Assembly: GCA_045636385.1 (NCBI GenBank)
Contig: JAZTXK010000044.1
Location: 23,523-87,522, forward strand
Reading direction: 5' to 3'
From: Eubacteriales bacterium
GTDB lineage: Bacteria; Bacillota; Clostridia; Oscillospirales; CAG-272
Length of the DNA: 64,000 nt
A program made the translations under genes and the position numbers. This document shows positions 34,677 through 61,907 of the stretch, piece after piece (position 1 is the stretch's first letter; every line of letters starts with the position of its first letter). The notes under the pieces were generated by a model that saw only the letters and a program-made list of their open reading frames with translations, made no database searches and had not been told where the DNA came from.

Positions 34677-36116
34677 TTAATTAAACTTCAGATCCGCCAT
34701 AACGGGGTAGTGATCGCTCGCGTCGTCGCTTATCTTGTTGACGACGACCTTAAACGCGAGGGCGTTTAATTCCTTCGTATACCATACGAAATCCTCGGAA
34801 ATACGGTTGGTCTCCCTTGTTCCGATCTTATGGAAGGTGCCGTGGGATTTGTTTTGATTTCCGTTGAGCTGTGCGTTTTGCTGAGAGTCGATATAGCCGT
34901 TTGCAACGAGGTGCTTATACGCGCTGTCCGGAGAGGATTGCGTGCGTCCGGTATACAGGTCGCCCGTGAGAATAACGGGGAGCGGGGATGAAAATGCAGA
35001 CTGTGCATCCGCAATGGCGGCAAGCTGCTCCTTCGCCCACTGGCTTGATGAACGGCTGTCGGCGTAGTGTGCGGTCGAGAGGATGAAATTTCGTCCCTTA
35101 TAGGAGAATACCGCCGTATGCGAGCCGTGGTAGTAGATAAATCCCTTGGGATTTGCCGAGGTGGTGTTGGTCTTCTGCGTTGAATAACGCCAAGCGGACG
35201 AGATGACCTCAAGGCCGATATCCTTGCGGTAGATGATGTTGGAATTTATCGTTTTGCCCTTTATTGCATCCGCACCCTCCTCGGGCTTGCCCTTGTCGTA
35301 GGGCGAATCGAGGCAAACGTAGTATTCGCCGAGTTCGCCCATAACGGCATCGAAAAAGACGGTATTTCCGTTGTGGCTGGCGTAAAACTCGTTGGTCGTG
35401 ATGATATCGGGCAGGAATTGCAGTATCATATCCGCAATATCCTCGCCGCGCGTGACGTTGTCGGTATAAACTACGGGAGGCGTTGTGACGTTGGGATCAA
35501 GATAGGGCGCCGCCATATTCCAATGGAATACGCGGAGATCGGTGCCCTCGGCGCGCTCCCACATACTGTTTTTGTTCTTATTGACCGTGTCGAGAATGTC
35601 GCCGCTTATGACGGTTCCTTCAAGTGCGGTCGGCGCGGGTGCGAGGGAGGAGATGTATGCGGTCAGCTCCTCGGTGAGCTTTTCAAGAGTGGCTCTGCCC
35701 TCGCCCATAACGACGAGCTTTTCGCCGATAACGCGGACTTCGTAGTACACGTTCGGGCGGGAGAATGCTCCCCTGACCTCGGCACTTTCGTCGCGGTTGG
35801 TCTTACCGACGAGGATCTCGCGCTCGCCTTCCTTTGCCGTGTGGCTTTTCACGGGAAGACGGCATCCGACAGCTTCGTTGATCGCCATTTTCAGCTCGTT
35901 TGCACAAGCCAAAGAGGCTTTCGAGCCGTTGTGGATTATTGTGTATTCCGAAATATCCGCGCCCGCGATCGATATCGAGAGCACTTCGGGGATCGCTTCG
36001 GTGGTTTCGGCGGGGAGAGTGGTTTCGGGCAACGTGGTTTCTGCCGGAATCTCCGCGGGGGCGCAGGAGAGAAGGATGAGGGGCAGAAGCGCAAGTATTA
36101 AAATAAATCTTTTCAT
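34677..36116 (-). CDS. Lipoprotein: shared N-terminal module plus endonuclease/exonuclease/phosphatase (EEP) family domain
   Basis: Signal peptide with lipobox LLSC and a T/E/P/A linker. The N-module is YTIIHNGSKASLACANELKMAINEAVG...EILVGKTN...VIGEKLVVMG. The C-terminal EEP end motif is SDHYPVMADLKF. Confidence 0.65.
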   Translation of the reverse strand: MKRFILILALLPLILLSCAPAEIPAETTLPETTLPAETTEAIPEVLSISIAGADISEYTIIHNGSKASLACANELKMAINEAVGCRLPVKSHTAKEGEREILVGKTNRDESAEVRGAFSRPNVYYEVRVIGEKLVVMGEGRATLEKLTEELTAYISSLAPAPTALEGTVISGDILDTVNKNKNSMWERAEGTDLRVFHWNMAAPYLDPNVTTPPVVYTDNVTRGEDIADMILQFLPDIITTNEFYASHNGNTVFFDAVMGELGEYYVCLDSPYDKGKPEEGADAIKGKTINSNIIYRKDIGLEVISSAWRYSTQKTNTTSANPKGFIYYHGSHTAVFSYKGRNFILSTAHYADSRSSSQWAKEQLAAIADAQSAFSSPLPVILTGDLYTGRTQSSPDSAYKHLVANGYIDSQQNAQLNGNQNKSHGTFHKIGTRETNRISEDFVWYTKELNALAFKVVVNKISDDASDHYPVMADLKFN

Positions 36117-37921
36117 ATTATTGGCATTTCGGTCATACGGAGCTTGGCACAGCCGTAGGGATAGAGCTCGATCTCCGCTTCATCAGAGATGGGCGTGCGC
36201 GATTCGGGCACCTTGGCGCAGACGTTTTCGTGTCGCTCGGCAAGTCCCCAAGGGATCTGCTTCATCTTTGCCGTCAGCGTTACGGGCGGATGCTCGGAGG
36301 AGAAGGGAATATCGGAGAGGGATTTTTTATTGAGCTTCAATTCAAGCGAGGAGAATGCGTAGTTCCAATCCGACTTCGGGATGTATTCGTAGTCGCAGTA
36401 GGGGAACTTGCGCTCGACGCCGTTTCTCTCGTATTCGTACATCTTCTTTTCGTACTTGATGGGGAGCGAGAAGACGAGCGAGCCGCAACGGACGCTGGCA
36501 AGATTATGCGGACGGTTGAAAAATTCGGGATTTGTGGTAAATTCGATGTTAAAGATCTTCTTTTCGCCCGCCTTGACGGAGAGAACGAGCATAGAGCCGT
36601 AGGCGCAGTTTCCGTTTACCTTGACATCCTTCGCGAAGGAGGGGACGCGGACGAGAAGCTTGAAGTCTTCCTTTGCCTCGAGTGTATATTCAAAAGAGTT
36701 TTCAAAGGGATAATTCGTCTTCAGCTCGACCGAATAAGCGTCGGTTTTGACAGAGGACGGTACGGGAACGACCGAAATGACCTCGTCTTCCGCGTGCATA
36801 AACGCGGAGAGCGCGAATTTAGGCCAAGCCTGACCGAAGTTTGCGGTGCAGCAGCCGTACTCGGGCTCGAGTCCGAAAAGATGCGCCTCGCGCTTGTTCG
36901 TGCCGAAGATGGGCTTGCCGGGGAAACGGATGCAGGCGATCTGGTTGCTCTGCTGATCGTACTGATGCGTCCACATATCGTCGCTGATCGTCGCGGGGAG
37001 GGCGTTAAACGCAAGTACTTCGAGGCGTTCCGCCCACTTGAAGTCGCCCGTTGCGGCGAAAAGATGCTCGTAGGAGTACATCTGCTCGGCAACGGCGCAG
37101 AGCTCCGTTCCCTGGATGGGAGAAAGTCCCGAGAGGCATTCGTCGCCCGTGAAAAGTCCGACGGGCGTGCCATTGTAGTTTTTAAGTACCTCGGAGAGCT
37201 TTTCCGCAACGTCGGAGTATTCCTCGCCGAGAAGATCGTGGCTGACCGCCTCGTATTTCAGCATCATTCCGAGGTTGACGATGTGCGTTTCGTAGGTCCA
37301 CTTGTCAAGCGGACGCTTCCAAAGGTGAGTCAGACTCGGATAATCCGTGCCCTGATCCTTTAAAATGCGGGCGAGGTCGGAGAGCCATTCCTCGTTATAG
37401 CGTTTTTTGAGGAAGTCTATTGCGATAAATGCCTCGAACCAACGGGCACGTCCCCACTTAAAGAGCGAGATCGTGCCCGAGGAGAGCAGATCGTGGTAGT
37501 TTTTCATCACGCGGTAAAGTACCTCGGGGATGCGCTCGTCGCGCGAGCATTCGTAATATACGACAAGGACCTTCGATATAAGCTGTACCGCCCAGCTGTC
37601 GTATGTAGGGATCTCTTCCTCGGCGCAGGGGCATATCCATCCGCTTTCCTTCTGATAGGAAAGAATTGCATCTATATATTTCTTCGCGCGAGCGATCATA
37701 TCCTCGTTTTCGAGGAGGTATGCAAGTGGGATGAATCCGTCGAGCCAATAGGGAACGCGCTCCCAACCCTCGGCGTCGCCTCCGATCCACGCGCTGTCGC
37801 GAACGTCGCGCCAGACCTTATCAAGATTACCCGCAAGTGACTCCGCCTGAATCAGGAGCTGACGGCGAAGCCATCCCTCGGGCTTTATTTCATTTGATGT
37901 GTAAAAATTCCATTTTTTCAC
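36113..37921 (-). CDS. GH127/DUF1680-family (beta-L-arabinofuranosidase-like) glycoside hydrolase
   Basis: 602 aa. It has the Cys-rich motif EYGCCTANFGQAWPKF (compare GCACCPANIARL of HypBA1) and an (alpha/alpha)6-like N-terminal half. The GTG start is preceded by GGAGGA. Confidence 0.65.
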   Translation of the reverse strand: MKKWNFYTSNEIKPEGWLRRQLLIQAESLAGNLDKVWRDVRDSAWIGGDAEGWERVPYWLDGFIPLAYLLENEDMIARAKKYIDAILSYQKESGWICPCAEEEIPTYDSWAVQLISKVLVVYYECSRDERIPEVLYRVMKNYHDLLSSGTISLFKWGRARWFEAFIAIDFLKKRYNEEWLSDLARILKDQGTDYPSLTHLWKRPLDKWTYETHIVNLGMMLKYEAVSHDLLGEEYSDVAEKLSEVLKNYNGTPVGLFTGDECLSGLSPIQGTELCAVAEQMYSYEHLFAATGDFKWAERLEVLAFNALPATISDDMWTHQYDQQSNQIACIRFPGKPIFGTNKREAHLFGLEPEYGCCTANFGQAWPKFALSAFMHAEDEVISVVPVPSSVKTDAYSVELKTNYPFENSFEYTLEAKEDFKLLVRVPSFAKDVKVNGNCAYGSMLVLSVKAGEKKIFNIEFTTNPEFFNRPHNLASVRCGSLVFSLPIKYEKKMYEYERNGVERKFPYCDYEYIPKSDWNYAFSSLELKLNKKSLSDIPFSSEHPPVTLTAKMKQIPWGLAERHENVCAKVPESRTPISDEAEIELYPYGCAKLRMTEMPII

Positions 37922-37971
37922 GGCAGTTTCCTCCGTTTATTTTATTTGAGTTAATTATAGCACAGATGGGG

Positions 37972-38000
37972 TTGAAAATCAATCTTTTTTATGATATAAT
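37972..38000 (+). promoter_or_regulatory. Sigma-A-type promoter
   Basis: TTGAAA, a 17-nt spacer, then TATAAT. Confidence 0.55.
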
Positions 38001-38029
38001 GGAAACGAAAATATGAAAGGAGCAACATA

Positions 38030-38521: not shown

Positions 38522-38597
38522 ATATGTGAAGGGAAAATATTTTTTCCACTAAAGCGAAGTTTAAAGATTAAATAAGCAAGCAAATACGATTGTCATG

Positions 38598-38940: not shown

Positions 38941-39025
38941 ATACTTAAGCGCACTTATTATTTTAATAAAATTGAAAATTTTCGCTCTGCGAAAATTCAC
39001 AGTGTTTGCTTCCACACTAATAATT

Positions 39026-39066: not shown

Positions 39067-39072
39067 TTTGAA

Positions 39073-40599
39073 TTATTTAGTATACTCAGTCGCCGAGAAA
39101 TTCTCCGCGATGTATTTGCACATCATATATCCGTAGTTTACGAGCTGGATGTTGATTCCCACGTCGTAGAGCTCACCGTAGAATGCGGTGGATTCGCAGT
39201 TTTCGGGGTAGGCGGGGTTGGTGTTGTGAACGTCGGCGTAGATTCTGATCTTGCCCTTGAAGCCCTCGAATCTCGTCTTGTTCTCCGCGAGGAAGTCCTT
39301 GTAGCTGTACTCGGAGAAGTTGCAGGTCAGACGCATCATATAAGAGAGATCGTAGCTCTTGATAGAGCGAGCGAGAAGGTCAGCCTTCGCCTCGTTCTTC
39401 ATAAAGTTGAGGATGGGTCTGCCGCAGAGAGCGGTGGTTCTTTCGCGGAGCTCACGGGTGAATGCGTATCCGCTGCTGACGAACGCGGAGTGCCATGTGC
39501 AGATAACGGTGGTGTAAGCCTTATACTTTTCAAGCAGAGGCCAGATGTCGCGGTCGAATTCCCAGAAGATAACGCCGTTTGCGTCTTCCTTTACGTCAAG
39601 ACGGATAAAGATGCGGTTCGCACAAACCTTGATCGCCTCGTCGAGAGTGGGAATCTTGTAGGGAGTTACAGCCGCGCCGTCACCGCCCTGACCCATCTTA
39701 AGATTGAGCTGCATAAGCTGCTCGTAGGTCCAATCGGTAAGCTCTGCGGAGTTGGGGAGTCCGTTTTTACCCATCTTATCCGCAACGTCGGTGGTTCTCC
39801 GGAGGTTTGCGTCGTGAAGAAGGACGAAAACGCCGTCCTTGGTCACGCGGGGGTCGATCTCGACCATATCGCCGCCGAGCATTATTGCGCTGATAAGACC
39901 CTCGATCGAGTTTTCGGGGTAGTAGACCATCTCGCCGCGGTGCAGGCAGGACATAAGTCTGCCGTCAACGTCATTGTATGCCGCGTATTTTTCATCGAAA
40001 TCGAGCATCCATTCGGGAGTTTCGTGGTAGAATTCCCAATGGAGCGCGAGCTTCGAGAAATCGTTTATGTATTCCTGACGGTCGGGGAGGGTGTAGGAGA
40101 TCGCTACGTCGGAATACTCATACTTATACTTGTCGGGAGTGAAGAGCTTTGCAAGTCTTGCGCAAGCTGTGTCGGTAGCGTAAGTGCTTCCGCCTGCGAT
40201 GGTGAGCGAGGTGCCGTTCAGAACGATCTTGAAATCGTCCATTCCGAGACCGTCGGCAGATGCGCCGCGGGCGAAGACTGCGATCTCGTAGTCGGTTGCC
40301 GCTTCGGATTCGCTCTTGACGGCGATAGTAGAGCCGCAGATAGCGCCAAGTCTTGCCGCAAGCTCTTTGGCGGTTGCCTCGTAGCCCTCGCCGTAAACGA
40401 CGGTGTACTCGGAAAGGGGTGTTTCACCGATTCTGACGGTTGTATCGGGCTCGGTTTCGGGTTCTGTTGCGGCATCGGTTGCGGGAGCGGTGGTGAGCGC
40501 CTCTTGTGCTGTGGTTTCTGCGGGTTCAACGGTGTTGCAGGATGCAAGTGCGCCCGTAAGCATAATGAGCGCGAGGATGAGAGATGCGATTCTTTTCAT
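39073..40599 (-). CDS. Lipoprotein: shared N-terminal module plus glycerophosphodiester phosphodiesterase (GDPD) domain
   Basis: Lipobox LASC and a T/A/E/P linker. The module is YTVVYGEGYEATAKELAARLGAICG...YEIAVFARG...LNGTSLTIAGG. The GDPD core is HRGEMVYYPENSIEGLISAIMLGGDMVEIDPRVTKDGVFVLLHD. An ATG at 40599 has better RBS spacing than the ATG at 40605. Confidence 0.75.
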   Translation of the reverse strand: MKRIASLILALIMLTGALASCNTVEPAETTAQEALTTAPATDAATEPETEPDTTVRIGETPLSEYTVVYGEGYEATAKELAARLGAICGSTIAVKSESEAATDYEIAVFARGASADGLGMDDFKIVLNGTSLTIAGGSTYATDTACARLAKLFTPDKYKYEYSDVAISYTLPDRQEYINDFSKLALHWEFYHETPEWMLDFDEKYAAYNDVDGRLMSCLHRGEMVYYPENSIEGLISAIMLGGDMVEIDPRVTKDGVFVLLHDANLRRTTDVADKMGKNGLPNSAELTDWTYEQLMQLNLKMGQGGDGAAVTPYKIPTLDEAIKVCANRIFIRLDVKEDANGVIFWEFDRDIWPLLEKYKAYTTVICTWHSAFVSSGYAFTRELRERTTALCGRPILNFMKNEAKADLLARSIKSYDLSYMMRLTCNFSEYSYKDFLAENKTRFEGFKGKIRIYADVHNTNPAYPENCESTAFYGELYDVGINIQLVNYGYMMCKYIAENFSATEYTK

Positions 40600-40610
40600 T
40601 GCCATATTCC

Positions 40611-42515
40611 TTATTTAGTGTATTCTGTTGCCTCAAAATTTGCGGCTATGTACTGGCAGAGCGAAAGTGCCTTGTTTACGAGCTGATAATTGATGCCTGC
40701 TTCGTAGAGCTCGGCGTAGAACGCGTGGGATTCGTTGTTGCCGTTATGAACGTCGGTGTAGGTGCGGAGCTTGCCCTTGTAGGAGTCGAGCTTCGTTTTG
40801 TTGTTTTTAAGATATTCCTTGTAATCAACGTCGCCGAAGTTGACGAAAAGGCGGATTCCGGGGTTGAAATCGTGACCCTTGATGACCTTGTTGTTTGCGG
40901 AGAGGGTATTGGCGTCACCCATGAAGACGATGCCGGGCTTGCCCGAAAGCTCCTGCGACTTCGCGCGATAGGTGTCGGTCAGGCTGTAGCTGTTTGCCTT
41001 AAACCAGCTGTGCCAAGTGTAGATGACGTTGGAATAGCTCTCATACTTCTGCATAAGAGGCCAGATGTCCTTTTCAAAATCCCAGTAGGGAGTATCATCG
41101 GTCGGGCCCTTTACGTCGAGACGGATGAAGATGCGGTTCGCGCAGACCTTGAAAGCCTCGTCGAGGGTGGGGATCTTGTAGGGCGTCAGCTTTGCGCTCG
41201 CGCCGCCGGTGCCTGTCTTGAGGTTGAGCTGCATAAGCTGCTCGTAGGTCCATTCGGATACGTTAGCCGACTTGGGAAGACCGTTCTTGCCCGCCATTTC
41301 CTCAAAGTTGGTGGTGCGGGTGAGGGTAGCATCGTGAAGGAGAACGAAAACGCCGTCCTTGGTGAGACGCGGGTCGATCTCGACCATATCGCAGCCCATC
41401 ATGATCGCGCTGATGATGCCCTCGATCGAGTTTTCGGGGTAGTAGACCATATCGCCGCGGTGGGCGCAGGACATAAGTCTGCCCGCGGGATCCATACTTG
41501 CGGCGTATTTTTCATCGTAATCAAGCATCCACTCGGGAGTCTGGAATGCAAGCTCCCAATGGAGGGGGAGGGATTCGATATCGTTTACGTAATCGCGCGA
41601 TGCGGGGAGCTCGTAGTGAAGGGTGAGATCGGAGATCGCGTATTCGGTCTTATCGCCGTCCGCGATCATCTTGCAAAGACGCGCGCAAGCCATTTCGACC
41701 GCGGTTTTGTTACCTGCGCTGATGTAGAGGTGCGCGCCCGCACCGCCGTCGGTGATATAGAAATCGTCGATGCGCTCGGTGGAGATCTTCGAGATGAAGC
41801 GGGAAGCAGCACCGATCGCGATTTCGTGTGCGGCGGGCTCATCCTTTTCGGTCTGTGTGCGAATGACTGCACCGGTCAGAACGCCGAGTCTGTTGGCGAC
41901 CTCTGCCGCAGCGTCCTTGTAGCTTGAGCCGTAAACGATGACGTAATCGGTCAGCGGAACGCCACCGACGGTAACGCCGGGCTTTTCGTATTCTGCCGCC
42001 TCAACCACGCGGAGCGTGGAGTTTACGGTAAGCTCGCCCTCGGTGAGGTATTTTTCGATAAAGAGATCAACGGCGCGGACGACAGCCTCGTCGCTGTGTC
42101 CCGTGATCATAAGGCGGTTGCCGATGAAGGCGATGACGGCATCGTTGTATCCAACGCCCTCGAGAGCCTGCGCGGATTCCTCGCGGTTTACCGTGCCTAC
42201 GGCGATCTCGTAAGGATGCGCCTCCTTGTTCGGCATAATGAAGTCGTCGCTGACATCGATCTTTACGCCGTATTTGTCGCTGAAAACGTTTCGCAGACGG
42301 ACGAAGGCATCGGTTACGGTGCTCGAAGCCTTCTCGGAGCGGATGAGCTTATATTCGGTCGTGCCACCTGAGGTGATGGCAACGGGAGGCGCGTCGGGAG
42401 TGGTGGTTTCGACTACCTCCGGGGTAGTGGTAACGTCGCTTTCACCGCCGTCGCAGGATGAGAGGATCATCAGCACGGCAAGCAGAAGCGAGAGAAGAAT
42501 GATTGATTTTTTCAT
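40611..42515 (-). CDS. Lipoprotein: two copies of the shared N-terminal module plus GDPD domain (tandem paralog)
   Basis: Lipobox LSSC. The first module is YKLIRSEKASSTVTDAFVRLRNVF...YEIAVGTVN...FIGNRLMITGH. The second is YVIVYGSSYKDAAAEVANRLGVL...HEIAIGAAS...HLYISAGN. The GDPD core is HRGDMVYYPENSIEGIISAIMMGCDMVEIDPRLTKDGVFVLLHD. The start was set at the ATG preceded by GAGGAAA. Confidence 0.75.
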   Translation of the reverse strand: MKKSIILLSLLLAVLMILSSCDGGESDVTTTPEVVETTTPDAPPVAITSGGTTEYKLIRSEKASSTVTDAFVRLRNVFSDKYGVKIDVSDDFIMPNKEAHPYEIAVGTVNREESAQALEGVGYNDAVIAFIGNRLMITGHSDEAVVRAVDLFIEKYLTEGELTVNSTLRVVEAAEYEKPGVTVGGVPLTDYVIVYGSSYKDAAAEVANRLGVLTGAVIRTQTEKDEPAAHEIAIGAASRFISKISTERIDDFYITDGGAGAHLYISAGNKTAVEMACARLCKMIADGDKTEYAISDLTLHYELPASRDYVNDIESLPLHWELAFQTPEWMLDYDEKYAASMDPAGRLMSCAHRGDMVYYPENSIEGIISAIMMGCDMVEIDPRLTKDGVFVLLHDATLTRTTNFEEMAGKNGLPKSANVSEWTYEQLMQLNLKTGTGGASAKLTPYKIPTLDEAFKVCANRIFIRLDVKGPTDDTPYWDFEKDIWPLMQKYESYSNVIYTWHSWFKANSYSLTDTYRAKSQELSGKPGIVFMGDANTLSANNKVIKGHDFNPGIRLFVNFGDVDYKEYLKNNKTKLDSYKGKLRTYTDVHNGNNESHAFYAELYEAGINYQLVNKALSLCQYIAANFEATEYTK

Positions 42516-42642: not shown

Positions 42643-44196
42643 TCAAGACTTGGTTTGATCCCATATAATAGAGCCTATGAACTCCTCGTCAACGATTCCG
42701 AGCGAGTACGCTTCTTCCAAGCGGTAAAAAGCTCCGTCTTTATAGATATACATCACCTGACTGTCGGAAAAAGTGAAGGTATATCCCGCAACACTTTCGG
42801 TACGAACCATCTGTGCATACATAAACGGACCGCCGACCATAACGGCATACGTTGAATAGCGTGCGGCATAGCACCGAACACTCCATGAAGCTTCCAAAGG
42901 ATTTTTTACCTCTTTTAGCTGTATATAATCCCAAACTACCCTGCGTATTTCATCTTCGGGGAGAACAATGGGAGATGGCTTATAAGTAGGAGTGTGAATA
43001 ATCAGCTTGTCGCGCAGAGAATCGTCGGCTTTTATTTTCAGATCATCCAGATAATCATTGTACGCAAGATGCCTTTGATATACAAGCGCAACGTCATCGG
43101 CTGTGAGCATTCCGCGCTCGTAAGCCTCCGCGAAATCGGTAAATTCGCCGTCCGCATATACAACGAAATCCTTTATAAGCGTTGTGAAAAGCAATTTCTG
43201 TCCCGCCATGTTCAGCGTTGTCAAAAATTCTCTTTCGTCCGTGACAAAAAGAACGTATTTGTTTCCGAATTTGCCGTAGTAACGGTATTCGTCAAGATAT
43301 TTTTCTCGGAAAAATCTGTGAGGATCACATCCTATACTTGCGCGCACTTGTTTTTCCGCTTCTTTTTCGGGATTTATCGCAGTGTTCTTTACCGCCGCTT
43401 TTTTGAATTCCTCGAGAAGTCCGGGATATAACAAGTCAAATTTCCAAGTGTCATACGCCTTATTTATATTCCGCATTTCAGCCTCCGAAAGGAGCTCGAT
43501 ACCTTCGGTGAATTCGGGACAAATATGAGGATCGTAAGCGAACGGTACATAATAGTCAACATACAGCCCATAGAAATAATCTATCTCATCGGAGGTGAGA
43601 AGATCCGCTTCTTCAATTTCCGATTGTTTATAAAGCACACCATTATTGAAAAAGAGCATCGTTCCCGTATAGAAATCAAACGAATATCCGCCAAGCTCAA
43701 AGCAGCAAAGTCCGTCTATGCTGACAGAGTTCCACAAAACGATCGTATCGCCGTATTTTCCAAAGTAATAGTTGCGGTATTTTTCTTTTCGCATCGCGCT
43801 TTCAACCGAATCGAATAATTTATAAGTTGCGGGCAGATCAATTTCTTTTCGGTATGCCTCGTTGATCTGCGCGAGGTCTTTCTCGGTCAGAACGTAACTG
43901 TCATACGGCTCGGTCTCGGCTTCGGTGATTTCCACTGTCGTTCCCGACGAAGCATAGGAATTGATCACCTCTGCGATATAGCCGAAGACAGGAAAAGCCA
44001 TTGAAAGCAGAAGCACGCAGGCAACGAGGGCGGCGTACTGTTTCCAGTACTTGAAGGGGGAGGGCTTAGTATAAGTTGCGCTCTGCGGCTCGGCAACCGA
44101 CCGCAGTTTAAGGCTCTCGCCGACCTCGGCGATGTATTTCGGGTCGATATAGTCAAAGGCTTCGATCAGCCTTAAATCCTTGAAATTGCCGTTCAT
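42643..44196 (-). CDS. Single-pass membrane protein, putative anti-sigma factor, with three internal extracytoplasmic repeats of about 100 aa
   Basis: The start was set at MNGNFKDL, where the ATG overlaps the sigma gene stop (ATGA) and is preceded by GGAGGGG. The TM segment is YAALVACVLLLSMAFPVFGYI. Three repeats are visible, each with a YxGKYG..VL...GY.F.F......Y.DG.FY..EAY..G-like pattern. GC is low. Confidence 0.6.
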   Translation of the reverse strand: MNGNFKDLRLIEAFDYIDPKYIAEVGESLKLRSVAEPQSATYTKPSPFKYWKQYAALVACVLLLSMAFPVFGYIAEVINSYASSGTTVEITEAETEPYDSYVLTEKDLAQINEAYRKEIDLPATYKLFDSVESAMRKEKYRNYYFGKYGDTIVLWNSVSIDGLCCFELGGYSFDFYTGTMLFFNNGVLYKQSEIEEADLLTSDEIDYFYGLYVDYYVPFAYDPHICPEFTEGIELLSEAEMRNINKAYDTWKFDLLYPGLLEEFKKAAVKNTAINPEKEAEKQVRASIGCDPHRFFREKYLDEYRYYGKFGNKYVLFVTDEREFLTTLNMAGQKLLFTTLIKDFVVYADGEFTDFAEAYERGMLTADDVALVYQRHLAYNDYLDDLKIKADDSLRDKLIIHTPTYKPSPIVLPEDEIRRVVWDYIQLKEVKNPLEASWSVRCYAARYSTYAVMVGGPFMYAQMVRTESVAGYTFTFSDSQVMYIYKDGAFYRLEEAYSLGIVDEEFIGSIIWDQTKS

Positions 44197-44750
44197 ACTA
44201 TGATCCCCTCCTTTTCGAGTTCTTTTGCCAGCCGCGCGCGCAGGCGGGCTAGCATTGATTTGATCTTGCTCTGCGAAAATCCAGTTTCCTCCATTATGCT
44301 TTTGTCGCTCGCGCGGTACCAATAGCGCAGGACGAAGACCTTTCGCTCGCTTTTGCTCAGCTTTTCAATAAAATCGTTGATCACCTTGCCCGCAAGACGC
44401 GATTCGTAATATTCGGATAGCGTCTGACCGTCGGAGAGCAGTGAGAGTATCTCGTCGCTGACGGTCTGCACGTTGCCTCCGCGCTTCCACGCGTTGTTTG
44501 CCCGCGACTTGCTGATCGCGATATTTTTCGTCCGCGCCGATATGTATGCCGAAAGCGGCTCGGGCTCGTCGGGCGGTATCGAATTCCAGAGTGCGAGCCA
44601 CGTATCGTTGACGCACTCCTCCGCATCCTCGCGCGAGGATAGGAAATTTTGCGCTATATAGCGGCAGAGCTTGCCGTATTTCTTTTCCGTTTCCTTTATA
44701 GCTTCTTCGTCGCGCGCGAAGAAAAGCTCAATTATCTTTCTGTCGTTCAT
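44193..44750 (-). CDS. ECF-type sigma-70 family RNA polymerase sigma factor
   Basis: Region 2 (YGKLCRYIAQNFLSSREDAEECVNDTWLALWNSIPP) and region 4 HTH (VFVLRYWYRASDKSIMEETGFSQSKIKSMLARLR). The ATG is preceded by GGAGG with an 8-nt spacer. Confidence 0.8.
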   Translation of the reverse strand: MNDRKIIELFFARDEEAIKETEKKYGKLCRYIAQNFLSSREDAEECVNDTWLALWNSIPPDEPEPLSAYISARTKNIAISKSRANNAWKRGGNVQTVSDEILSLLSDGQTLSEYYESRLAGKVINDFIEKLSKSERKVFVLRYWYRASDKSIMEETGFSQSKIKSMLARLRARLAKELEKEGIIV

Positions 44751-44968
44751 AGGCAAGACCTCCTTTCACCCTATATATCGCAAAATGCACCCGATCGGTC
44801 GCGTCGGAACGTAAAATTTTTCAATATTTTGTGCGGTACAAACTCCGCATTTTATCAAGTGAATTTACTTTTCATTATAATAATACCATTTCAAAGCCCT
44901 TTTGTCAACCAAAAAGCGATCTGTATTGCCATTTTGCTAAAAAATATTGCACTCAACTCAAAAAGATA

Positions 44969-55095: not shown

Positions 55096-56067
55096 TTAAT
55101 CAAGTGTTATCAGCTCTTTGACGTTTGCGATGTCGCTCTGTTTGACGCTTATTGAAAAACTTTGGTATTTCATATCTGCAGTTCCGCCGCCTCCGGGCTC
55201 TACTGTTTTTACAACAACGTAAGCCTTATCTCCCGAGGTATATACGTTATTGACGCTCAGTTTTATTGATCCTGAGCCGCGTGTGATTATCCTTGTGACG
55301 ATCAGTGCATTCTCGGCAAAGAAGGCGTTGTCATAGAGATCTCTTTGTTTTTCAAGCAATTCCAAGTGATAATCGGTGTTATAACTGCTCTTCATCCGGT
55401 CAATATACCGATCGTATTCTTCCTTTGATCTGAATATAAGATCTGTGCTGTCCTGGGAAACGAGGATGGGCGAGAGCGCGGTGTATTCTATTGTCGCGGC
55501 ATCCTTGCAATGATATTCGATATTCGGGATATAAGCGAGGTTAAAGCCGCCCTCTACGCCTACGCTCAGCGTTTCAATCAAAGGATCTGCGTTTTTGATC
55601 TCTTCCATTTTATCGTAGAGTCCTTGCGTAAAATCCTCCATAGCAAACTTGAGCATTATCATTTTGATGGAGCTCAGCGGATTGATAACAGCATGAGGGA
55701 AGAGATTTTTCATATTGTGTTTTGCTATGAGGGAATCTGCGATATTTTTCTCTTTCAATGTGTAATAGCAGACGACAAATGGCTCGTCATCCGGTTCGTT
55801 AAAAAACAGTTTGTCGGGGTACTCCTTCCTTTTTTGATCGAGATAATTCTCTATTGATTTTTCCCAATCGAGGATAAACTGAGCAACGTCGATAGGTTCG
55901 TTATCTGTTTGTTGTGCGGTGTCGGGGATAAACTGAGTAGTTTCGGGAGTTTCATGGCGTGTTGGCTCATCGGTATGCTCCGCGGTTTCATCCGCGGTGC
56001 TGTCGTTGCAAGAAATGCAAGATAAGACGGTGAATATACACAAAAATAATAAAAACAGCCTTTTCAT
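55096..56067 (-). CDS. Hypothetical lipoprotein, low GC
   Basis: Signal peptide MKRLFLLFLCIFTVLSCISC. RBS GGAGGT is present. No family was recognised. GC is visibly lower than in the neighbours. Confidence 0.55.
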   Translation of the reverse strand: MKRLFLLFLCIFTVLSCISCNDSTADETAEHTDEPTRHETPETTQFIPDTAQQTDNEPIDVAQFILDWEKSIENYLDQKRKEYPDKLFFNEPDDEPFVVCYYTLKEKNIADSLIAKHNMKNLFPHAVINPLSSIKMIMLKFAMEDFTQGLYDKMEEIKNADPLIETLSVGVEGGFNLAYIPNIEYHCKDAATIEYTALSPILVSQDSTDLIFRSKEEYDRYIDRMKSSYNTDYHLELLEKQRDLYDNAFFAENALIVTRIITRGSGSIKLSVNNVYTSGDKAYVVVKTVEPGGGGTADMKYQSFSISVKQSDIANVKELITLD

Positions 56068-56111: not shown

Positions 56112-57971
56112 TTACGGCTCAACGATATTATTGGTGATCGCCGTGCCAAGCGTATAGGGCAGCGGGAGCGTTACCGTATTGCCCTGCCAGCCGGCTACGT
56201 AGAGCTCGGCGTAGTTGGGGTTCTTGCCCTCGAGGAGGACGTGGTTGTATGTGTTGGCTTTAACGGTGGGGAAATAGTTTGCTCCGACGGGCCAGAGGAT
56301 TACCGAGGGCTTCATCAGCGAGTATGCGGACTGTGTTCCGCTGTTCGAGCCGCCTGTGCCGCCGCCGTGGTGCGCTACCTGAAGGATGTCGCACTTGAGC
56401 TCGGTCTTATACAAATTGTTGCAGATGTTGAAAGCGTGGCCTGTTGCGTCGCCCGTGATGATCGCGGTGGTCGATTTGCCCGACGCATCGGTAGTTATCG
56501 AGCGGAAGACGATCGAGGAGGTGTTGAATGCGTTTGCAACTGTGGGAAGGTAAGCGTCGAGGGTGTAGAGGATCTCGAACGCGGTGTCGCCGAACCACCA
56601 GACCTGTCCGATGTGGGGAACGACGTAGTCAACGCCGATTTCGCGCGCAACGCTTACGGTCTTGTTATAATTGACATATTTGCCGGTTGCGAAGCTCGAG
56701 GTAGTATTCTGCGCGGTATTGAATGCCGCTTCGGGCCAGAAGTTGCACATAATGCGCTCGAAATTGAATTTCGTGAACTGTCTGTACTCGTTCATCAGCG
56801 TGCCGAAGTGGTCGGTGTGGGGGTGCGAGATGATCCAAGCCGCGATGGTGATGTCTTTGTCGGTCTTGGCGTAGTCCTTCGACTGCTCGCGGAGTGCTTT
56901 GATTATATTGTTAGCGTAGATGCCGGAATTTCCGTGGTGTCCGCCGTCAACGATGACGAAGCTTCCGTCCGAGAGGCGGTAGATGATGCACATACCGTTC
57001 TGCTGATATTCGCCGCTGTAAATGCCCTCGACGCCGATCATAGATATCTGCGAGGTGGTTACGGGCGCGGCATCGCTCTTCTTGGTGGGGAGAGTTTTCT
57101 CCGCGAAGGGCTCGATGATAACTCGTACTTCCTTGAGGCTGTTGTAGTAGCCTGCGTTAACGGTGTATTTTTCGGTGTAGAGAACGGCAAACTGGCTGCC
57201 GACTATTTCGTTTGTGGAATACGTCTGATAGCCGATATCCGCAAGCTTTTTAAGGTAAGTGCTGTATTCATCGGGGGTCGTGTCCTTGATGATAACGCCG
57301 TAAGTGCCGTCGCCCATATCGGTGACGGAGGAGAACTTACCGCCCTCGTATGTGGGCAAGCTTGCCGTCATAGCATCGTTCTGCTTGACGAAATCGAGCT
57401 CCTCTGCGGGGATGGCAAGTGTCTTGGTGCCGTCAGCCTCGTCGGTAACCGACTTGCGGATAATTGCGATAAGATCGTTCATCGCCTTGGTGTAGCCCAT
57501 ATCGGTGTAGGAGAAGACTACGATTTTGTTGCCGACCGCCTTGACGGTGTATTCACCGTAGGTGAGATCCTTTGTAGCCTCAGCGGTTTCGGGATAATTG
57601 GTGTTGCCGAAAAGGATCTCGAGGGTCGAGCTATCGTGGCTTGCGCCGTCCTTTATCCAGTCGTCGCCGAGCTCGGGGGAAACGCCCGTGACGTTGTTTA
57701 TGATCTTTCTGATCTCGATAGCAGTCTTGACGGGCATATCGTCGGTCTTGAGGTTCGAGGGACGGACGATCTTTACGTTTGCAACTCCGCCCGAGACGAG
57801 AGTGTAAGTTGTCGGTGCAGAGGGAACGGACTCGGTTTCGGGTGCTTCGATTCCGTCAATGACCGCGGCGGTCGTTTCGTCCGCGTTTTCGTCGGGAGTG
57901 CATCCCACGAAGACGGAGAGGGTAAGCACAAGCGCAAAGAGGAGCGCAAGAAGCTTCAGATTGAATTTCAT
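56112..57971 (-). CDS. Lipoprotein: shared N-terminal module plus central domain plus ComEC-type MBL-fold metallo-hydrolase domain (paralog 3 of 3)
   Basis: Lipobox FVGC and a T/E/P/A linker. The module is YTLVSGGVANVKIVRP...AIEIRKIINNVTG...LEILFGNTNYPETAEA...AVGNKIVVFSY. The MBL motifs are ISHPHTDHFGT and VAHHGGGTGG. The start was set at the ATG preceded by AAGGA. Confidence 0.75.
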   Translation of the reverse strand: MKFNLKLLALLFALVLTLSVFVGCTPDENADETTAAVIDGIEAPETESVPSAPTTYTLVSGGVANVKIVRPSNLKTDDMPVKTAIEIRKIINNVTGVSPELGDDWIKDGASHDSSTLEILFGNTNYPETAEATKDLTYGEYTVKAVGNKIVVFSYTDMGYTKAMNDLIAIIRKSVTDEADGTKTLAIPAEELDFVKQNDAMTASLPTYEGGKFSSVTDMGDGTYGVIIKDTTPDEYSTYLKKLADIGYQTYSTNEIVGSQFAVLYTEKYTVNAGYYNSLKEVRVIIEPFAEKTLPTKKSDAAPVTTSQISMIGVEGIYSGEYQQNGMCIIYRLSDGSFVIVDGGHHGNSGIYANNIIKALREQSKDYAKTDKDITIAAWIISHPHTDHFGTLMNEYRQFTKFNFERIMCNFWPEAAFNTAQNTTSSFATGKYVNYNKTVSVAREIGVDYVVPHIGQVWWFGDTAFEILYTLDAYLPTVANAFNTSSIVFRSITTDASGKSTTAIITGDATGHAFNICNNLYKTELKCDILQVAHHGGGTGGSNSGTQSAYSLMKPSVILWPVGANYFPTVKANTYNHVLLEGKNPNYAELYVAGWQGNTVTLPLPYTLGTAITNNIVEP

Positions 57972-58003
57972 ATTATTTTTCCTTTCTGAAAATGGATTTT
58001 TGA

Positions 58004-59857
58004 TCAAGGTTCAAGAACGACCTTTTTCTCCGCCGTTCCGAGTGTGTAGGGGAGCGAGATCGTTACGCTGTTGCCCTGCCAGCCCGCAACGTAGAGCTCG
58101 GCGAAGTTGGGGTTTCTTGAGTCGTAGAGAACGTCGTTGTAGGTGTAGGTCTTGACCGTCGAGAAATGCTTATCTCCGACAGGCCAGAAGAGGACGGAGG
58201 GACTCATAAGCTCGTATGCCTTCTGTGTACCGCCGCTGTTACCGCTTGTTATCGAGCCGTGGTGCGCGAGCTGAACGACGTCGGATTTGAGTGCCTTGCC
58301 GAAGGTGTCGGCTATGATCTGCATCGTGTAGCCCGTCGCGTCGCCCGTGACCATAACGGTGTAATCCTTACCCGCGGCGTCGGTGGTTACGGTTCGGAAA
58401 ATGAGGGACGAGGTATTGAAGGTCGGGGTAGTGCGGGGAAGGAAGGATTCGAGCGTGTAAAGGAATTCAAACCTCGTTCCGCCGATCCACCAGACCTGAC
58501 CGACGTGGGGAACTATGTATTCCGCACCGAGCTTTTCGGCAATCGTGGGCGTTTGCGAATAGGTGGTGTATTTGCCGGGAGCGAACGTGTCCTTCGCGGC
58601 CTTGAAGGATTCAAAGGTTGCCTCGTCCCAGAAGTTAGCGAATACGCGCTCGACCTTGAACTTGGTAAACTGAGTATATGCCTTGACGAACGTGCCGAAG
58701 TGGTCGCTGTGCGGGTGAGTGATTATCCACGCGGCGATGCGGATATCTGCGTCGGATTTCGCGTAGTTCTTCGACTGCTCGCGCAGGGTGTTTATAATGT
58801 CGGTCGCCGATACAGTCGCGTCCTCCGAATGACCGCCGTCGACGATGACGAAGCTTCCGTCCGCGAGGCGGTAGATGAGGCAGAGGCCGTTGTTCTGATA
58901 CTCCGCGCCGATGAGGTTGTCAAGACCGATCATCGTAAGCAGGGGCGTGGTTACAGCTTTAACGTCGGTTTTCGCGAGAGGCAGAGTGTTTTCGCTGAAG
59001 GGCTCGATGACGATACGCACCTCTTCCTCGTTCTTATAAAATCCCGCGTTGACCGTGTATTTGTCGGTGTAAAGAGTGGAGAAAAGATTTCCCGCGAGTT
59101 CATTTGAACAATGAGTTTTGTAGCCGCCGTCCGCAAGCGCGGTAAGGTAGGACTTGTATTCGCTCTCGGCAGTTTCGCCGATGACGATGCAGTAGCATCC
59201 GTCACCCGCGTTTGAAACGGTGATGATCTTTCCGCCCGCGTAGAGAGGGAGAGAAGCAGTCATTTTCTCGACGGTGCCGACGATATTGAGCTTTTCGGCT
59301 TCGAGCGTGAGCGATTTCTGACCGCCCTCGTCAGTGATACTGCCGCGGAGCAGAGAAGTGAACTTTGCCAGCGCTTCCGCATATCCGACGTCGGTATAGG
59401 AGAATACGACGATCTTGTTTCCGACCGCGCGGATGGCGTAGTCGCCGTAGCCGATCGAAGCCATTACCTCGTGGCTTTCGGGGTGAGTGGTCGGACCGAC
59501 GAGGATCTCGAAGGTTTCCGCATTATGCTCCGCGCCCGCTGCGATCCAGTCGTCGCCGAGCTTGAGGGAGACGTCGGTGCGCTCCTTGATGAACTTTCTG
59601 ATCTCGACCGCTGTGGTGACCGCGATATGAGTCGAATCAAACTCCTCGGGACGGACTATCGAGAAAAGTCCTTCCTTGCCCGAGACGATATTGTACTCGC
59701 TCGGTGCGGGGGCTTCAGTCTCGGGTGTGGTTTCGGGAACCGTTTCGATGACCTCGGGCGCTGTTGTTTCGGCCTCGCCGCCACAGCTCATCAAATAGCA
59801 TGACAAGGTCAGCATCAGCGACAAGAATATCAGAATAATCTTTATATTGCTTTTCAT
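58004..59857 (-). CDS. Lipoprotein: shared N-terminal module plus central domain plus ComEC-type MBL-fold domain (paralog 2 of 3)
   Basis: Lipobox LMSC. The module is YNIVSGKEGLFSIVRP...AVEIRKFIKERTD...FEILVGPTTHPES...AVGNKIVVFSY. The MBL motifs are ITHPHSDHFGT and LAHHGS. The start was set at the ATG preceded by AAGGAGA. Confidence 0.75.
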   Translation of the reverse strand: MKSNIKIILIFLSLMLTLSCYLMSCGGEAETTAPEVIETVPETTPETEAPAPSEYNIVSGKEGLFSIVRPEEFDSTHIAVTTAVEIRKFIKERTDVSLKLGDDWIAAGAEHNAETFEILVGPTTHPESHEVMASIGYGDYAIRAVGNKIVVFSYTDVGYAEALAKFTSLLRGSITDEGGQKSLTLEAEKLNIVGTVEKMTASLPLYAGGKIITVSNAGDGCYCIVIGETAESEYKSYLTALADGGYKTHCSNELAGNLFSTLYTDKYTVNAGFYKNEEEVRIVIEPFSENTLPLAKTDVKAVTTPLLTMIGLDNLIGAEYQNNGLCLIYRLADGSFVIVDGGHSEDATVSATDIINTLREQSKNYAKSDADIRIAAWIITHPHSDHFGTFVKAYTQFTKFKVERVFANFWDEATFESFKAAKDTFAPGKYTTYSQTPTIAEKLGAEYIVPHVGQVWWIGGTRFEFLYTLESFLPRTTPTFNTSSLIFRTVTTDAAGKDYTVMVTGDATGYTMQIIADTFGKALKSDVVQLAHHGSITSGNSGGTQKAYELMSPSVLFWPVGDKHFSTVKTYTYNDVLYDSRNPNFAELYVAGWQGNSVTISLPYTLGTAEKKVVLEP

Positions 59858-59921
59858 CTTATTCTCCTTGAATAAAAGCATACACATATTTATTTTACCA
59901 CAAAAATGAAAAAAGGTCAAT

Positions 59922-59962
59922 AAAAAAGTTCTTCTTCGGGGTGCTGAAGAAGAACTTTTTTA
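59922..59962. terminator. Intrinsic terminator between MBL paralogs 1 and 2
   Basis: Hairpin aagttcttcttc/gaagaagaactt flanked by A6 and T6 runs. Two further small hairpins (aaatttgc/gcaaattt and cttcgcc/ggcgaa) lie at 59968-60020. Confidence 0.75.
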
Positions 59963-60041
59963 TTTTTATTGAAATTTGCCCGCAGCAAATTTCTTCCTTA
60001 ACTTCGCCGCAGGCGAAATGTCACTGCGAGAGCAGGGTGCC

Positions 60042-61907
60042 TCAGGGCTCAAGAACCTCGTTAAGTATTGCGGTGCCGAGAGTGTAGGGAAGCGGAAGTG
60101 TTACCGCGTTGCCCTGCCAGCCCGAAATGTAGAGCTCCTCGTAGTTGGGATTTCTATGGCTCGTAAGTACCTGATTGTATGCCTTTTTTGCTTTGTCGGC
60201 GTAATTGTGAGTGCCCGCCGGCCAAAGGATAACGTAGGGCCTCATATTGGCATAGGCTGTGGAGGTATGTGTGTCGGCGCCGCCGGTTCCCGCGCCGTGA
60301 TGCGCGACCTGAACGACGTCGGATGCCATTGACTTGCCGTACATTTTGTTGCAGATCTCAAATGCGTGTGCGGTTGCGTCGCCGGTGACCATTACCGTGG
60401 TCGACTTGCCCGAAGCATCGGTCGTAGTCGTGCGGATGACGAGCGAGCAGGTGTTGAAGCCGGTAGCGACGTTCGGCAGATAGCTTTCGATGGTGTAGAG
60501 GATCTCAAATGCTGTGTCGCCGTACCAGAATACCTGACCGACGTGGGGATTGATGAAGTCGGCGCCGATCTCCGCCGCTATGTCGCGGGATTTGAGGTAT
60601 CCTTTCCAGGTGCCCGAGGCAAAGCTCGCGCTTGCGTTTTTAGACTCCATAAAGTCTTCCTCGGTCCAGAAGCTGCACATAATGCTGTCAAAGGTAAAGG
60701 AGGTAAACTTCTTGTATTCCTTGAGGAACATTCCGTGGTGGTCGGTATGAGGATGAGTTATGATCCAGCAGGCGATGCGGATATCCTTGTCGGTCTTGGC
60801 GTAATCCTTTGACTGTTCGCGGAGCTCCTTGACGATCTGCGCGGCGTAGATGGCGGAGTTTTCGGCGTGGCCGCCGTCGATGACGATGAAGCTGCCGTCC
60901 GAGAGACGGTAGATTAAGCTCATTCCGTTATTCTGATAACTGCCGTTATATATTCCGTCAACGCCGAGCATGGTGATCTGTGACGTTGTGATGGGTGCGG
61001 CATCGGATTTCAGCGGTGCGAGGGTATCGTCCTCGTAGGGCTCTATGATGATGCGAGCCTCGCCGAGATTGTTGTAGTAGCCCGCATTTACCGTGAATTC
61101 CTCGGTGTAAACGGTGGCGAACAGCGAACCCGCGATATCGTTTGTCGCGTGGGTCTTGTAACCTTCCTCGGTAAGAGCGGTAAGATAATTCTTGTATTCC
61201 TCGGGTGTCGTATCCTTGATTATGATACCGAAGCATCCTTCGCTCATATCAAGTGCGGTAAATTCGGAGCCGCCGTCGTATACGGGAACGGCAGATGCCA
61301 GCTTCTCGAAGGTGAAAACGCTGTTCAGGTGCTCCGAGCTGACGGTGATATTGCTCGTACCGTCCGCGTTTTCGGCAACCGCGCTGTAAAGGAGCGACAC
61401 GAAGCGGTTGACGGCGTTCGTGTAACCCTCGTCGGCGTAGGAAAGAATGACTATCTTATTGCCAACGGCGATGATTCCGTAGTCGCCGTATCCGATATCC
61501 CCTGCCGCCTCGGCGGTTTCGGGATAAGCGGTCTGACCGATGAGTATTTCAAGGCTTTCGCTGTTGTAGCTCTCGCCGTCCTTGATGAAGTCGTCTCCGA
61601 CCTCAGCGGGGGATGTCATGAAGCGTTCGAGCCCCTTTCTGATATTGAGAGCAGCTTTTACCTCGGCGGAATCCGCGGGAAGATCTGCGGGGTAGACGAT
61701 TTTAAATAGCGCGTTACCGCCGATTACGAAATCGTATAATTTGGGTGCGGGAGCTTCGGTTTCGGGAGCTTCGGTGACGATCTGCTCTGTGGTATCGGGG
61801 GAAGCCGTGGTTTCTGCGGGAAGATCCTCCGCACAGCCATAGGCGAGGAGGGAGAGGATGCAGATAACCGAAAGCAGGATCAAAAGCTTTCTGATAGTTT
61901 TGTTCAT
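60042..61907 (-). CDS. Lipoprotein: shared N-terminal module plus central domain plus ComEC-type MBL-fold domain (paralog 1 of 3)
   Basis: Lipobox AYGC. The module is YDFVIGGNALFKIVYP...ALNIRKGLERFMT...LEILIGQTAYPETAEA...AVGNKIVILSY. The MBL motifs are ITHPHTDHHGM and VAHHGAGTGG. RBS AAGGAAG is present. Confidence 0.75.
   Translation of the reverse strand: MNKTIRKLLILLSVICILSLLAYGCAEDLPAETTASPDTTEQIVTEAPETEAPAPKLYDFVIGGNALFKIVYPADLPADSAEVKAALNIRKGLERFMTSPAEVGDDFIKDGESYNSESLEILIGQTAYPETAEAAGDIGYGDYGIIAVGNKIVILSYADEGYTNAVNRFVSLLYSAVAENADGTSNITVSSEHLNSVFTFEKLASAVPVYDGGSEFTALDMSEGCFGIIIKDTTPEEYKNYLTALTEEGYKTHATNDIAGSLFATVYTEEFTVNAGYYNNLGEARIIIEPYEDDTLAPLKSDAAPITTSQITMLGVDGIYNGSYQNNGMSLIYRLSDGSFIVIDGGHAENSAIYAAQIVKELREQSKDYAKTDKDIRIACWIITHPHTDHHGMFLKEYKKFTSFTFDSIMCSFWTEEDFMESKNASASFASGTWKGYLKSRDIAAEIGADFINPHVGQVFWYGDTAFEILYTIESYLPNVATGFNTCSLVIRTTTTDASGKSTTVMVTGDATAHAFEICNKMYGKSMASDVVQVAHHGAGTGGADTHTSTAYANMRPYVILWPAGTHNYADKAKKAYNQVLTSHRNPNYEELYISGWQGNAVTLPLPYTLGTAILNEVLEP

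Follow-up and report, generated by a model that had tools for sequence, protein, structure and literature searches.

What does one and the same N-terminal module do in front of three different phosphoester-cleaving folds? The question is raised by a 64-kb stretch of DNA, here called the window (contig JAZTXK010000044.1, positions 23,523 to 87,522 of the forward strand), from an uncultured Eubacteriales/Clostridia bacterium whose closest genomes are metagenome-assembled genomes (MAGs) with up to 85% identity, several of which derive from the gut of cattle, goat, and yak. Six predicted lipoproteins of the window, designated A to F (Table 1), carry this module before a catalytic domain of EEP (A), GDPD (B and C), or ComEC-type MBL fold (D, E, and F).

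The reading favored here, to which we give a probability of about one half, is that A–F are extracellular phospho(di)esterases with a built-in accessory module of GH20b type, constituting the phosphoester arm of glycan or cell-wall-polymer foraging. They would be tethered to the membrane of a ruminant-gut bacterium of the Clostridia/Eubacteriales. A domain of the GH20b/GH67N type, normally located N-terminally to the barrels of GH20-like glycosidases (glycoside hydrolases, GH), would have been recombined in this lineage, as a cassette of one to three modules, with many extracellular hydrolase folds. The partners would be mostly metal-dependent phosphoesterases (EEP most often, followed by MBL, GDPD, and then alkaline phosphatase and calcineurin-like enzymes), and after each fusion the cassette would have been inherited together with its partner. 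The module may be a rigid domain with a structural or positioning role, and perhaps enlarges a surface for glycan recognition. The targets of the enzymes would be glycopolymers that carry phosphate, for instance teichoic-acid-like polymers and phosphoglycans, and the GDPD/DUF4996 and GH127-like enzymes encoded by linked genes would complete the processing of the products inside the cell.

The module, its superfamily and its partners

The module is about 130 amino acids (aa) long and is present in seven copies in the six proteins, C having two (C1 and C2); a hidden Markov model (HMM) scan, in which the match in A spans aa 42-178, found no further copies in the window. Modules of D, E, and F match one another in pairwise BLAST at E-values of 1e-39 to 1e-48, and the pairs C1-E (2e-12), C1-F (1e-9), B-C2 (1e-21), B-C1 (3e-5), and A-D (1e-5) complete a chain that connects all seven copies. 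A stricter test used profiles made from non-window modules having one partner type each (124 EEP-linked, 81 MBL-linked, and 32 GDPD-linked). Each of the three profiles scores all seven window modules at 25-131 bits, as compared to 9.4 bits for the best of 1400 shuffled sequences. In the alignment of the seven modules, E-I is invariant, as is the G of GNK, and the recurring motif (YxIV, EIxVG, GNK[LI]V[IV]) is visible. The original prediction, made from the DNA letters before this analysis, that one N-terminal module is common to three catalytic folds, is thus confirmed by both the BLAST chain and the independent profiles.

A similar module had also been proposed for the cytoplasmic DUF4838 protein at 2112-4073. 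The module HMM gives no match there, and the hhalign comparison of its N-terminus is borderline (probability 0.4% with the seven-module profile; E 1.1e-3 and probability 21% with a 75-module profile). Fold-level kinship is plausible because DUF4838 enzymes (GH163/GH185) are remotely homologous to GH20 (PMC10570127). The 5'-nucleotidase-like lipoprotein (19254-20747) and the two PHP proteins mentioned in the same prediction exist in the window, and none has the module; by HMM scan it is likewise absent from the lipoprotein at 55096-56067.

The AlphaFold2 model of the D module has a predicted local distance difference test score (pLDDT) of 94.3, a predicted template modeling score (pTM) of 0.88, and a beta-beta-alpha-beta-beta-alpha-beta-beta-alpha core. 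In Foldseek searches of PDB it matches the N-terminal alpha/beta domains of GH20, GH84, GH67, and GH115 enzymes (E 4e-5 to 1e-2, probability 0.96-1.0, template modeling score (TMq) 0.38-0.63; TM 0.45-0.63 for 8pxu, 4h04, 3sur, CpOGA, 4zmh, 7pxq, and 1mqq). These include 8pxu, the lacto-N-biosidase 4h04/5bxp, 3sur/3gh7, and 7dva in GH20, Clostridium perfringens NagJ/OGA (CpOGA) and CpGH84A/D in GH84, 4zmh and 7pxq in GH115, and 1mqq and 1k9e in GH67.

No window module passes the gathering thresholds of PF02838, PF03648, or PF12971, the sole Pfam signal among them being Glyco_hydro_20b in B (15.4 bits vs. a cut-off of 26.1). Modules of relatives are matched directly by Glyco_hydro_20b, Glyco_hydro_67N, and NAGLU_N (PF02838, PF03648, and PF12971, in this order) in 14, 9, and 2 of 146 proteins at E<=1e-3, and one relative (P0046) passes GH67N with 44.9 bits vs. 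24.3. When PDB was searched by sequence, neither the module profile nor A, D, or the D/E/F profile gave anything useful; a weak match was an 'S-layer protein' (9fsa, E 0.067). Based on the Foldseek fold matches of the model and the Pfam matches in relatives, the module is assigned to a divergent branch of the GH20b/GH67N-type accessory-domain superfamily, and is not a new fold. In the window it does not directly precede a glycoside-hydrolase (beta/alpha)8 domain, its partners there being EEP, GDPD (a TIM-barrel phosphodiesterase), and MBL.

An exhaustive HMMER search with the seven-module profile against 1.84 billion representative proteins detects 4993 clusters (50% identity) at E<=1e-3, of which 2417 reach E<=1e-10. 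A word-indexed search with the same profile found only 9 fragmentary close relatives, and a deeper one with a 75-module alignment found nothing at E<=1e-5. The analyzed set of 162 proteins includes the 150 best matches, six extra fragments, and the six window proteins. Two tandem copies occur in 118 of the 162 and three copies in 22, and a lipobox-like N-terminus is found in 146 of the 156 non-window proteins. All named relatives come from uncultured Clostridia, Clostridiales, Lachnospiraceae, or Ruminococcaceae, and are titled "hypothetical protein" or named by their catalytic domain. The family is apparently, from these sequences, a distinct, unannotated and lineage-expanded branch of lipoproteins, found so far in uncultured Clostridia.

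Partners were counted by Pfam in the 146 best relatives of the 4993 clusters (top 3%), which were found with a profile seeded with phosphoesterase-linked modules. Within this set, 105 proteins (72%) have a phosphoesterase partner of one of five folds (Exo_endo_phos 47, Lactamase_B 32, GDPD 16, Alk_phosphatase 5, and Metallophos 5), and approximately 11% have a carbohydrate-active or esterase partner (DUF4838 6, GH16 2, GH5/apiosidase-like 1, GH43 1, beta-helix/GH141-like 2, GDSL/CE2 2, and WbsX 1). Apart from this Pfam count, jackhmmer-based labels were used in place of single-linkage BLAST clustering, which merged EEP and GDPD regions. Alkaline phosphatase and calcineurin-like folds are missing from the query set, an independent indication that the association with phosphoesterases is real. 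Preferential pairing with phosphoester-cleaving folds, which the original prediction proposed as a test, is seen among the best relatives, including two folds outside the window. The prediction had named as damaging the case of a generic GH20b-like domain lacking such enrichment; the domain is indeed GH20b/GH67N-like, which weakens the prediction, and among the best relatives phosphoesterase partners dominate. No description of this module-swapped architecture was found in the literature, and the set with its phosphoesterase bias appears undescribed, as had been supposed.

The nearest-neighbor module is linked to the same partner type for 109 of 125 EEP-linked, 68 of 84 MBL-linked, and 27 of 35 GDPD-linked modules; therefore most fusions are regarded as old and vertically inherited. 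Between GDPD, EEP, alkaline-phosphatase, and GH141-like proteins, the first modules share 41-43% identity (E 1e-28 to 1e-31). The tandem position is kept (first-to-first 87, first-to-second 7), and similarity across partners (median 66 bits) exceeds that between two copies of one protein (40 bits), which indicates that the tandem cassette is older than its spread among catalytic folds. The module is also fused to glycosidases and esterases (GH163/185-like, GH5, GH16, GH43, GH141-like, and GDSL/CE2). Modules linked to carbohydrate-active partners match phosphoesterase-linked ones with a median of 59 bits and 36% identity, and phosphoesterase-linked modules of different folds match each other with 66 bits and 35.5% identity; no phosphoesterase-specific clade is seen in this comparison by partner class.

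Expansion is also evident within genomes and within single proteins. Tandem paralogue arrays in Clostridia MAGs contain seven and eight module-MBL genes (L021 1541-14730; L023 1872-19021) and five module-EEP genes (L084 511-10348), arrays of 3, 5, 7, and 8 genes being represented. A Lachnospiraceae protein of 3270-3306 aa, present in two independent assemblies (P0010/P0284), has seven EEP domains with eight module copies between them.

Catalytic domains, export signals and gene layout

The proposed split into one EEP protein, two GDPD proteins (one having two modules), and three ComEC-type MBL proteins agrees with Pfam, NCBIfam, Foldseek, and catalytic residues. In B and C, GDPD (PF03009) scores 82 and 78 bits vs. 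a cut-off of 23.6, with only profile positions 1-97 of 244 aligned, and the motifs HR...EN and ExD...HD are readable. The PDB relatives of B are 3i10 (E 8e-14), 3mz2 (4e-13), and GlpQ of Bacillus subtilis, 5t91 (1e-6).

Lactamase_B scores 24.2 bits in D, 26.1 in E, and 18.7 in F, the last being below the cut-off of 22.7. The NCBIfam model ComEC_Rec2 (TIGR00361) matches the three proteins at E 1e-5 to 1e-6, with 21.7-26.6 bits vs. the equivalog cut-off of 190. With these scores, and with no membrane channel domain, D–F are not ComEC/Rec2 proteins, and only the MBL domain is related. Its metal ligands are kept in D, E, and F and are invariant: H383, H385, D387, and H388 (HxHxDH), H453, D508, and H534-H535. 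Between module and MBL domain (aa ~196-320) there is an alpha/beta region of about 125 aa, present also in two-module MBL relatives, for which no Pfam or PDB match was found.

Exo_endo_phos in A scores 21.1 bits, below the cut-off of 24.5. The AlphaFold2 model of full-length A (55-sequence alignment) has a pLDDT of 90.3 and a pTM of 0.86, and Foldseek pairs its EEP fold with 3g6s, 3mpr, and 4c1r (E 5e-16 to 3e-14), with Nocturnin, CNOT6L, and TDP2 close behind the Bacteroides EEP proteins in the ranking. Residues N200, E243, H350, D386, D442, and D468-H469 are invariant in A and its homologues (55 sequences). By its modeled fold and its catalytic set, A belongs to the EEP superfamily.

The six lipoprotein reading frames of the original prediction were found, all on the minus strand, and the start codons proposed there give them canonical signal peptides. 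Each starts with positively charged residues (n-region), which are followed by a hydrophobic core, a lipobox-like motif with terminal Cys, and then a T/E/P/A-rich stretch of 20-35 residues. The lipobox was identified by pattern match, which A–E satisfy (LLSC in A, and LASC, LSSC, FVGC, and TLSC/LMSC); F is atypical with AYGC. Thus, A–F carry putative export and lipidation signals, and lipidation is predicted.

Table 1. Module-bearing genes of the window and genes linked to them (nucleotide positions in the window; ORF, open reading frame).
Feature	Position	Strand	Description	Basis
Protein A	34677..36116	minus	479 aa; one module and EEP domain	ORF
A, EEP domain	~34680-35543
A, module	~35583-35993
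GH127-like gene	36113..37921	minus	602 aa; without signal peptide	Pfam GH127 catalytic and middle domains
Protein B	39073..40599	minus	508 aa; one module and GDPD
B, module	~40075-40452
Protein C	40611..42515	minus	634 aa; tandem modules and GDPD
C, tandem modules	~41976-42392 and ~41595-41984
323-aa lipoprotein	55096..56067	minus	without module; last gene of E-D unit	lipobox VLSC
Protein D	56112..57971	minus	619 aa; module, ~125-aa alpha/beta region, ComEC-type MBL
D, module	~57387-57818
Protein E	58004..59857	minus	617 aa; paralogue of D
E, module	~59279-59707
Protein F	60042..61907	minus	621 aa; paralogue of D and E
F, module	~61317-61748
GDPD + DUF4996 gene	62065..62916	plus	cytoplasmic; divergent from MBL array	Pfam

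Promoter- and terminator-like sites together with gene spacing predict four transcription units in three loci for the six genes: F alone; E, D, and the 323-aa lipoprotein; C and B; and the GH127-like gene with A, probably with a MATE gene. F is served by a separate promoter-like site (61966-61938) and by a strong hairpin that resembles a terminator (59964-59919). A promoter-like site for E is present at 59920-59892, and a hairpin at 55084-55045 marks the end of the E-D-lipoprotein unit. The 323-aa lipoprotein has no Pfam match, and its position downstream of the MBL array is kept in three related loci (L001, L002, and L009). C is upstream of B with a gap of 11 bp, the two genes are probably co-transcribed, and terminator-like hairpins flank them (42635-42603 before C and 38998-38976 after B). 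A promoter-like site (37982-37954) accompanies the cytoplasmic GH127-like gene; its stop codon overlaps the start of A by 4 bp, and A is translationally coupled to it. Between the B/C and D/E/F loci there are 13.6 kb with unrelated genes for a sigma factor, MoxR, DUF58, transglutaminase, dnaX, and recR. One operon or system of all module-bearing genes is rejected in view of the predicted promoters and terminators and of the housekeeping genes in between, and with it the single harvesting system of the original prediction.

Directly upstream of the C-B unit, beyond the strong hairpin at 42635-42603, the minus strand (42643-44756) encodes an ECF-type sigma factor (44193-44756) overlapping a 559-aa protein without Pfam match (42643-44322), a possible anti-sigma factor. 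Unrelated to the module proteins is a radical SAM/SPASM protein (8338-9717, minus strand) whose N-terminal domain is PqqD-like and which resembles maturases of ribosomally synthesized and post-translationally modified peptides (RiPPs).

Linkages of the six genes to their neighbors were followed in related genome loci (L numbers), which were gathered with a full-length MBL alignment and are biased toward MBL proteins. The 4-bp overlap between GH127-like and EEP genes recurs in L083, with an EEP orthologue 68% identical to A. The GDPD/DUF4996 gene adjoins the module-MBL array in L001-L011 and L014 with 91-99% aa identity (e.g., L006 5111-5962). In a distant Oscillospiraceae MAG (L021), a homologue with 49% identity (668-1507) is located on the same strand, 34 bp upstream of the seven module-MBL genes. 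The array proteins are only 68-85% identical among relatives, vs. 91-99% for the neighboring GDPD/DUF4996. In close relatives another canonical GDPD gene is found about 1 kb further on, just past the window end (L006 3248-3976). In Bacteroidota, the MBL homologues are short lipoproteins that stand alone among housekeeping genes and are uninformative on substrate.

The window is also rich in genes of glycan salvage, including apiosidase-like, BNR, DUF4838, ceramidase-like, GH109-like, rhamnosidase, and GH127-like ones, and two more cytoplasmic GDPDs. In total, four GDPD genes are present in the 64 kb (12596-13408, B, C, and the gene next to the MBL array). The first of these belongs to an apparent operon on the minus strand (11764-14931) with an MFS transporter (13420-14931) and a SIS/GKRP-type, MurQ-etherase-like protein (11764-12657), which could be an uptake route for glycerophospho-sugars or cell-wall fragments.

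The GH127-like and GDPD/DUF4996 neighbors would tie the module enzymes, by gene linkage, to glycan and glycerophosphodiester salvage. The arrays of 3-8 paralogues and the protein with seven EEP domains and eight modules point to diversified specificities, and such arrays, together with their fast divergence, suggest substrates such as diverse glycopolymers rather than DNA.

The role of the module and the competing explanations

The EEP domain alone makes up about 60% of the A chain and residues 1-45 are disordered, yet the pTM of the full-length model is 0.86, and the orientation of the module to the EEP domain is therefore considered confidently fixed. In this AlphaFold model the module is predicted to be held rigidly against the EEP domain, in a way that resembles the packing of GH20b on its GH20 barrel. 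The modules are acidic, with a median isoelectric point (pI) of 4.66, a net charge of -6, and 2.6% basic residues, and therefore seem poorly suited to bind DNA or teichoic acid directly. EILVGxTNRxES, a polar motif widely kept in the family, has degenerated in five window copies (B, C2, D, E, and F), which argues against a universal ligand site. In A, the conserved module residues include E100, T106, R108, and S111. Because the modules are acidic, appear rigidly packed, and form no phosphoesterase-specific clade, we consider an integral domain with an accessory or positioning role more likely than a tethered unit targeting polyanions.

The alternative that survives best, although it is clearly less probable than the accessory-domain reading, is that the module is a substrate-agnostic stalk, spacer, or folding aid on enzymes that scavenge phosphate from simple substrates (DNA, nucleotides, phospholipid head groups, and glycerophosphodiesters), the enrichment being due to paralogue expansion and query bias. 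It would explain why the module always follows a lipobox and linker, in 1 to 8 copies and with any partner fold, and why nearest-neighbor modules share partner type, as in vertical families (EEP 109/125). It also agrees with the 5'-nucleotidase-like lipoprotein and PHP proteins of the window, and with an orthologue of A located between PHP and dCMP/cytidine deaminase genes. However, five phosphoesterase folds vs. few others would be hard to obtain by chance with a neutral module, and the window lipoproteins at 19254-20747 and 55096-56067 do without it. Nor would uniform substrates like DNA be expected to go with poly-EEP fusions and with arrays in which 3 to 8 paralogues have diverged, and the GH127-like and GDPD/DUF4996 linkages are conserved.

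Less probable still is the original proposal itself, a module dedicated to targeting a phosphodiester polymer (teichoic acid, extracellular DNA, or phosphoglycan) for three catalytic kinds of enzymes, with the six genes forming one harvesting system. The phosphoesterase share of the 146 best module proteins, the polar motif kept in the wider family, and the linkage of GDPD/DUF4996 to MBL arrays are in its favor. The acidity of the modules, the predicted rigid rather than tethered packing, the loss of the TNR motif in five of the seven copies, and the presence of the module on glycosidases and GDSL/CE2 enzymes with no separate clade all speak against the targeting function, as the four transcription units do against the single system. 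The least likely explanation is that the enzymes remodel polymers of their own envelope (wall teichoic or lipoteichoic acid trimming, as by WhyD) and do not harvest foreign ones, for although the proteins are predicted by lipobox to be membrane-tethered at the cell surface, and GlpQ-type GDPDs and membrane-anchored WhyD offer precedents (PMC9208761), the up to eight fast-diverging paralogues per array, next to a far better conserved GDPD gene, and the glycan-salvage context are foraging-like.

Several observations weigh against the foraging reading favored here. The inter-domain packing comes from a single AlphaFold model. The 72% share of phosphoesterases may be inflated, as it describes the best 150 of 4993 clusters and a phosphoesterase-seeded profile. 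In Foldseek, the margin of the EEP match over nucleases is small for A (5e-16 vs. about 2e-14 for Nocturnin), and the MBL domain of ComEC, which those of D–F resemble, is a presumed nuclease. The linkage to the GH127-like gene is gone in a 60% identical orthologue of A (L078 6965-9980). There, a PHP phosphoesterase gene is found upstream and a dCMP/cytidine deaminase gene downstream, a context that hints at nucleotide salvage.

A further-reaching proposal, which we regard as speculative and rather unlikely in its full form, is that the module marks a new class of gut-Firmicutes surface lipoproteins for "phosphoglycan/teichoic-acid utilization," in which a GH20b-derived glycan-recognition surface serves five phosphodiesterase and phosphatase folds, and the arrays match polymer diversity. 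If true, these proteins would be a Gram-positive counterpart of polysaccharide-utilization loci for phosphate-bridged polymers. Phosphodiester-linked glycopolymers, including teichoic acids, capsules, and yeast and protozoal phosphoglycans, are abundant in the gut, and their degradation by Firmicutes is largely unexplained. With ~5000 clusters at 50% identity, the unstudied family is large; it occurs in expanded arrays, and A–F with the linked GDPD/DUF4996 and GH127-like genes are concrete candidates for biochemistry. The finding that the GH20b-type accessory domain also occurs outside glycosidases bears on domain annotation and on the role of this long-unexplained domain.

Relation to known systems

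Proteins D–F have the HxHxDH, H, D, and HH ligands in common with the MBL domain of ComEC/Rec2. Unlike ComEC/Rec2, they lack a membrane channel domain and are lipoproteins with the module and the extra domain of ~125 aa. No solved structure is detectable for them by sequence search of PDB. Other MBL enzymes that cleave phosphodiesters include the pneumococcal phosphorylcholine esterase Pce and NAPE-PLD.

For the EEP domain of A, the closest solved structures include BT3783 and BT2630 (3MPR and 4C1R; E 5e-15 to 3e-14, TM 0.69-0.72), which are extracytoplasmic and Mg-dependent and belong to glycan foraging, phosphorylated glycans being the substrates in that locus. BT3783 is an Mg-dependent sugar phosphatase (mannose-6-phosphatase) of EEP fold from the yeast-mannan locus of Bacteroides thetaiotaomicron (Cuskin et al., 2015; PMC4978465). 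It differs from A in having no N-terminal module and in being a periplasmic or surface enzyme of Bacteroidota, and the identity to the EEP domain of A is only 17-19%.

GDPDs of the GlpQ type are proven teichoic-acid hydrolases, and WhyD of Streptococcus pneumoniae is membrane-anchored and trims wall polymers (PMC9208761). GlpQ of B. subtilis and Staphylococcus aureus and WhyD have the GDPD fold with N-terminal catalytic motifs as in B and C, are extracellular or membrane-anchored, and hydrolyze glycerol-phosphate polymers in phosphate scavenging or wall remodeling (PMC9208761). Neither GlpQ nor WhyD has the module, and the closest solved relatives of B and C are the uncharacterized structural-genomics GDPDs 3i10 and 3mz2.

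The module itself is best compared to the GH20b/GH67N/NAGLU_N accessory domain of GH20, GH84, GH67, GH89, GH115, and DUF4838 glycosidases, with which it shares the alpha/beta fold, the position N-terminal to the catalytic domain, and, as predicted, the packing. Unlike this domain, the window modules score below all Pfam cut-offs, and modules of the family follow a lipobox and linker and are often in tandem. Their partners are mostly non-glycosidase and non-TIM (EEP, MBL, alkaline phosphatase, and calcineurin-like), and they form a large branch of their own, so far only in Clostridia. In six relatives the two meet in one chain, the module preceding a true GH67N-like domain and DUF4838.

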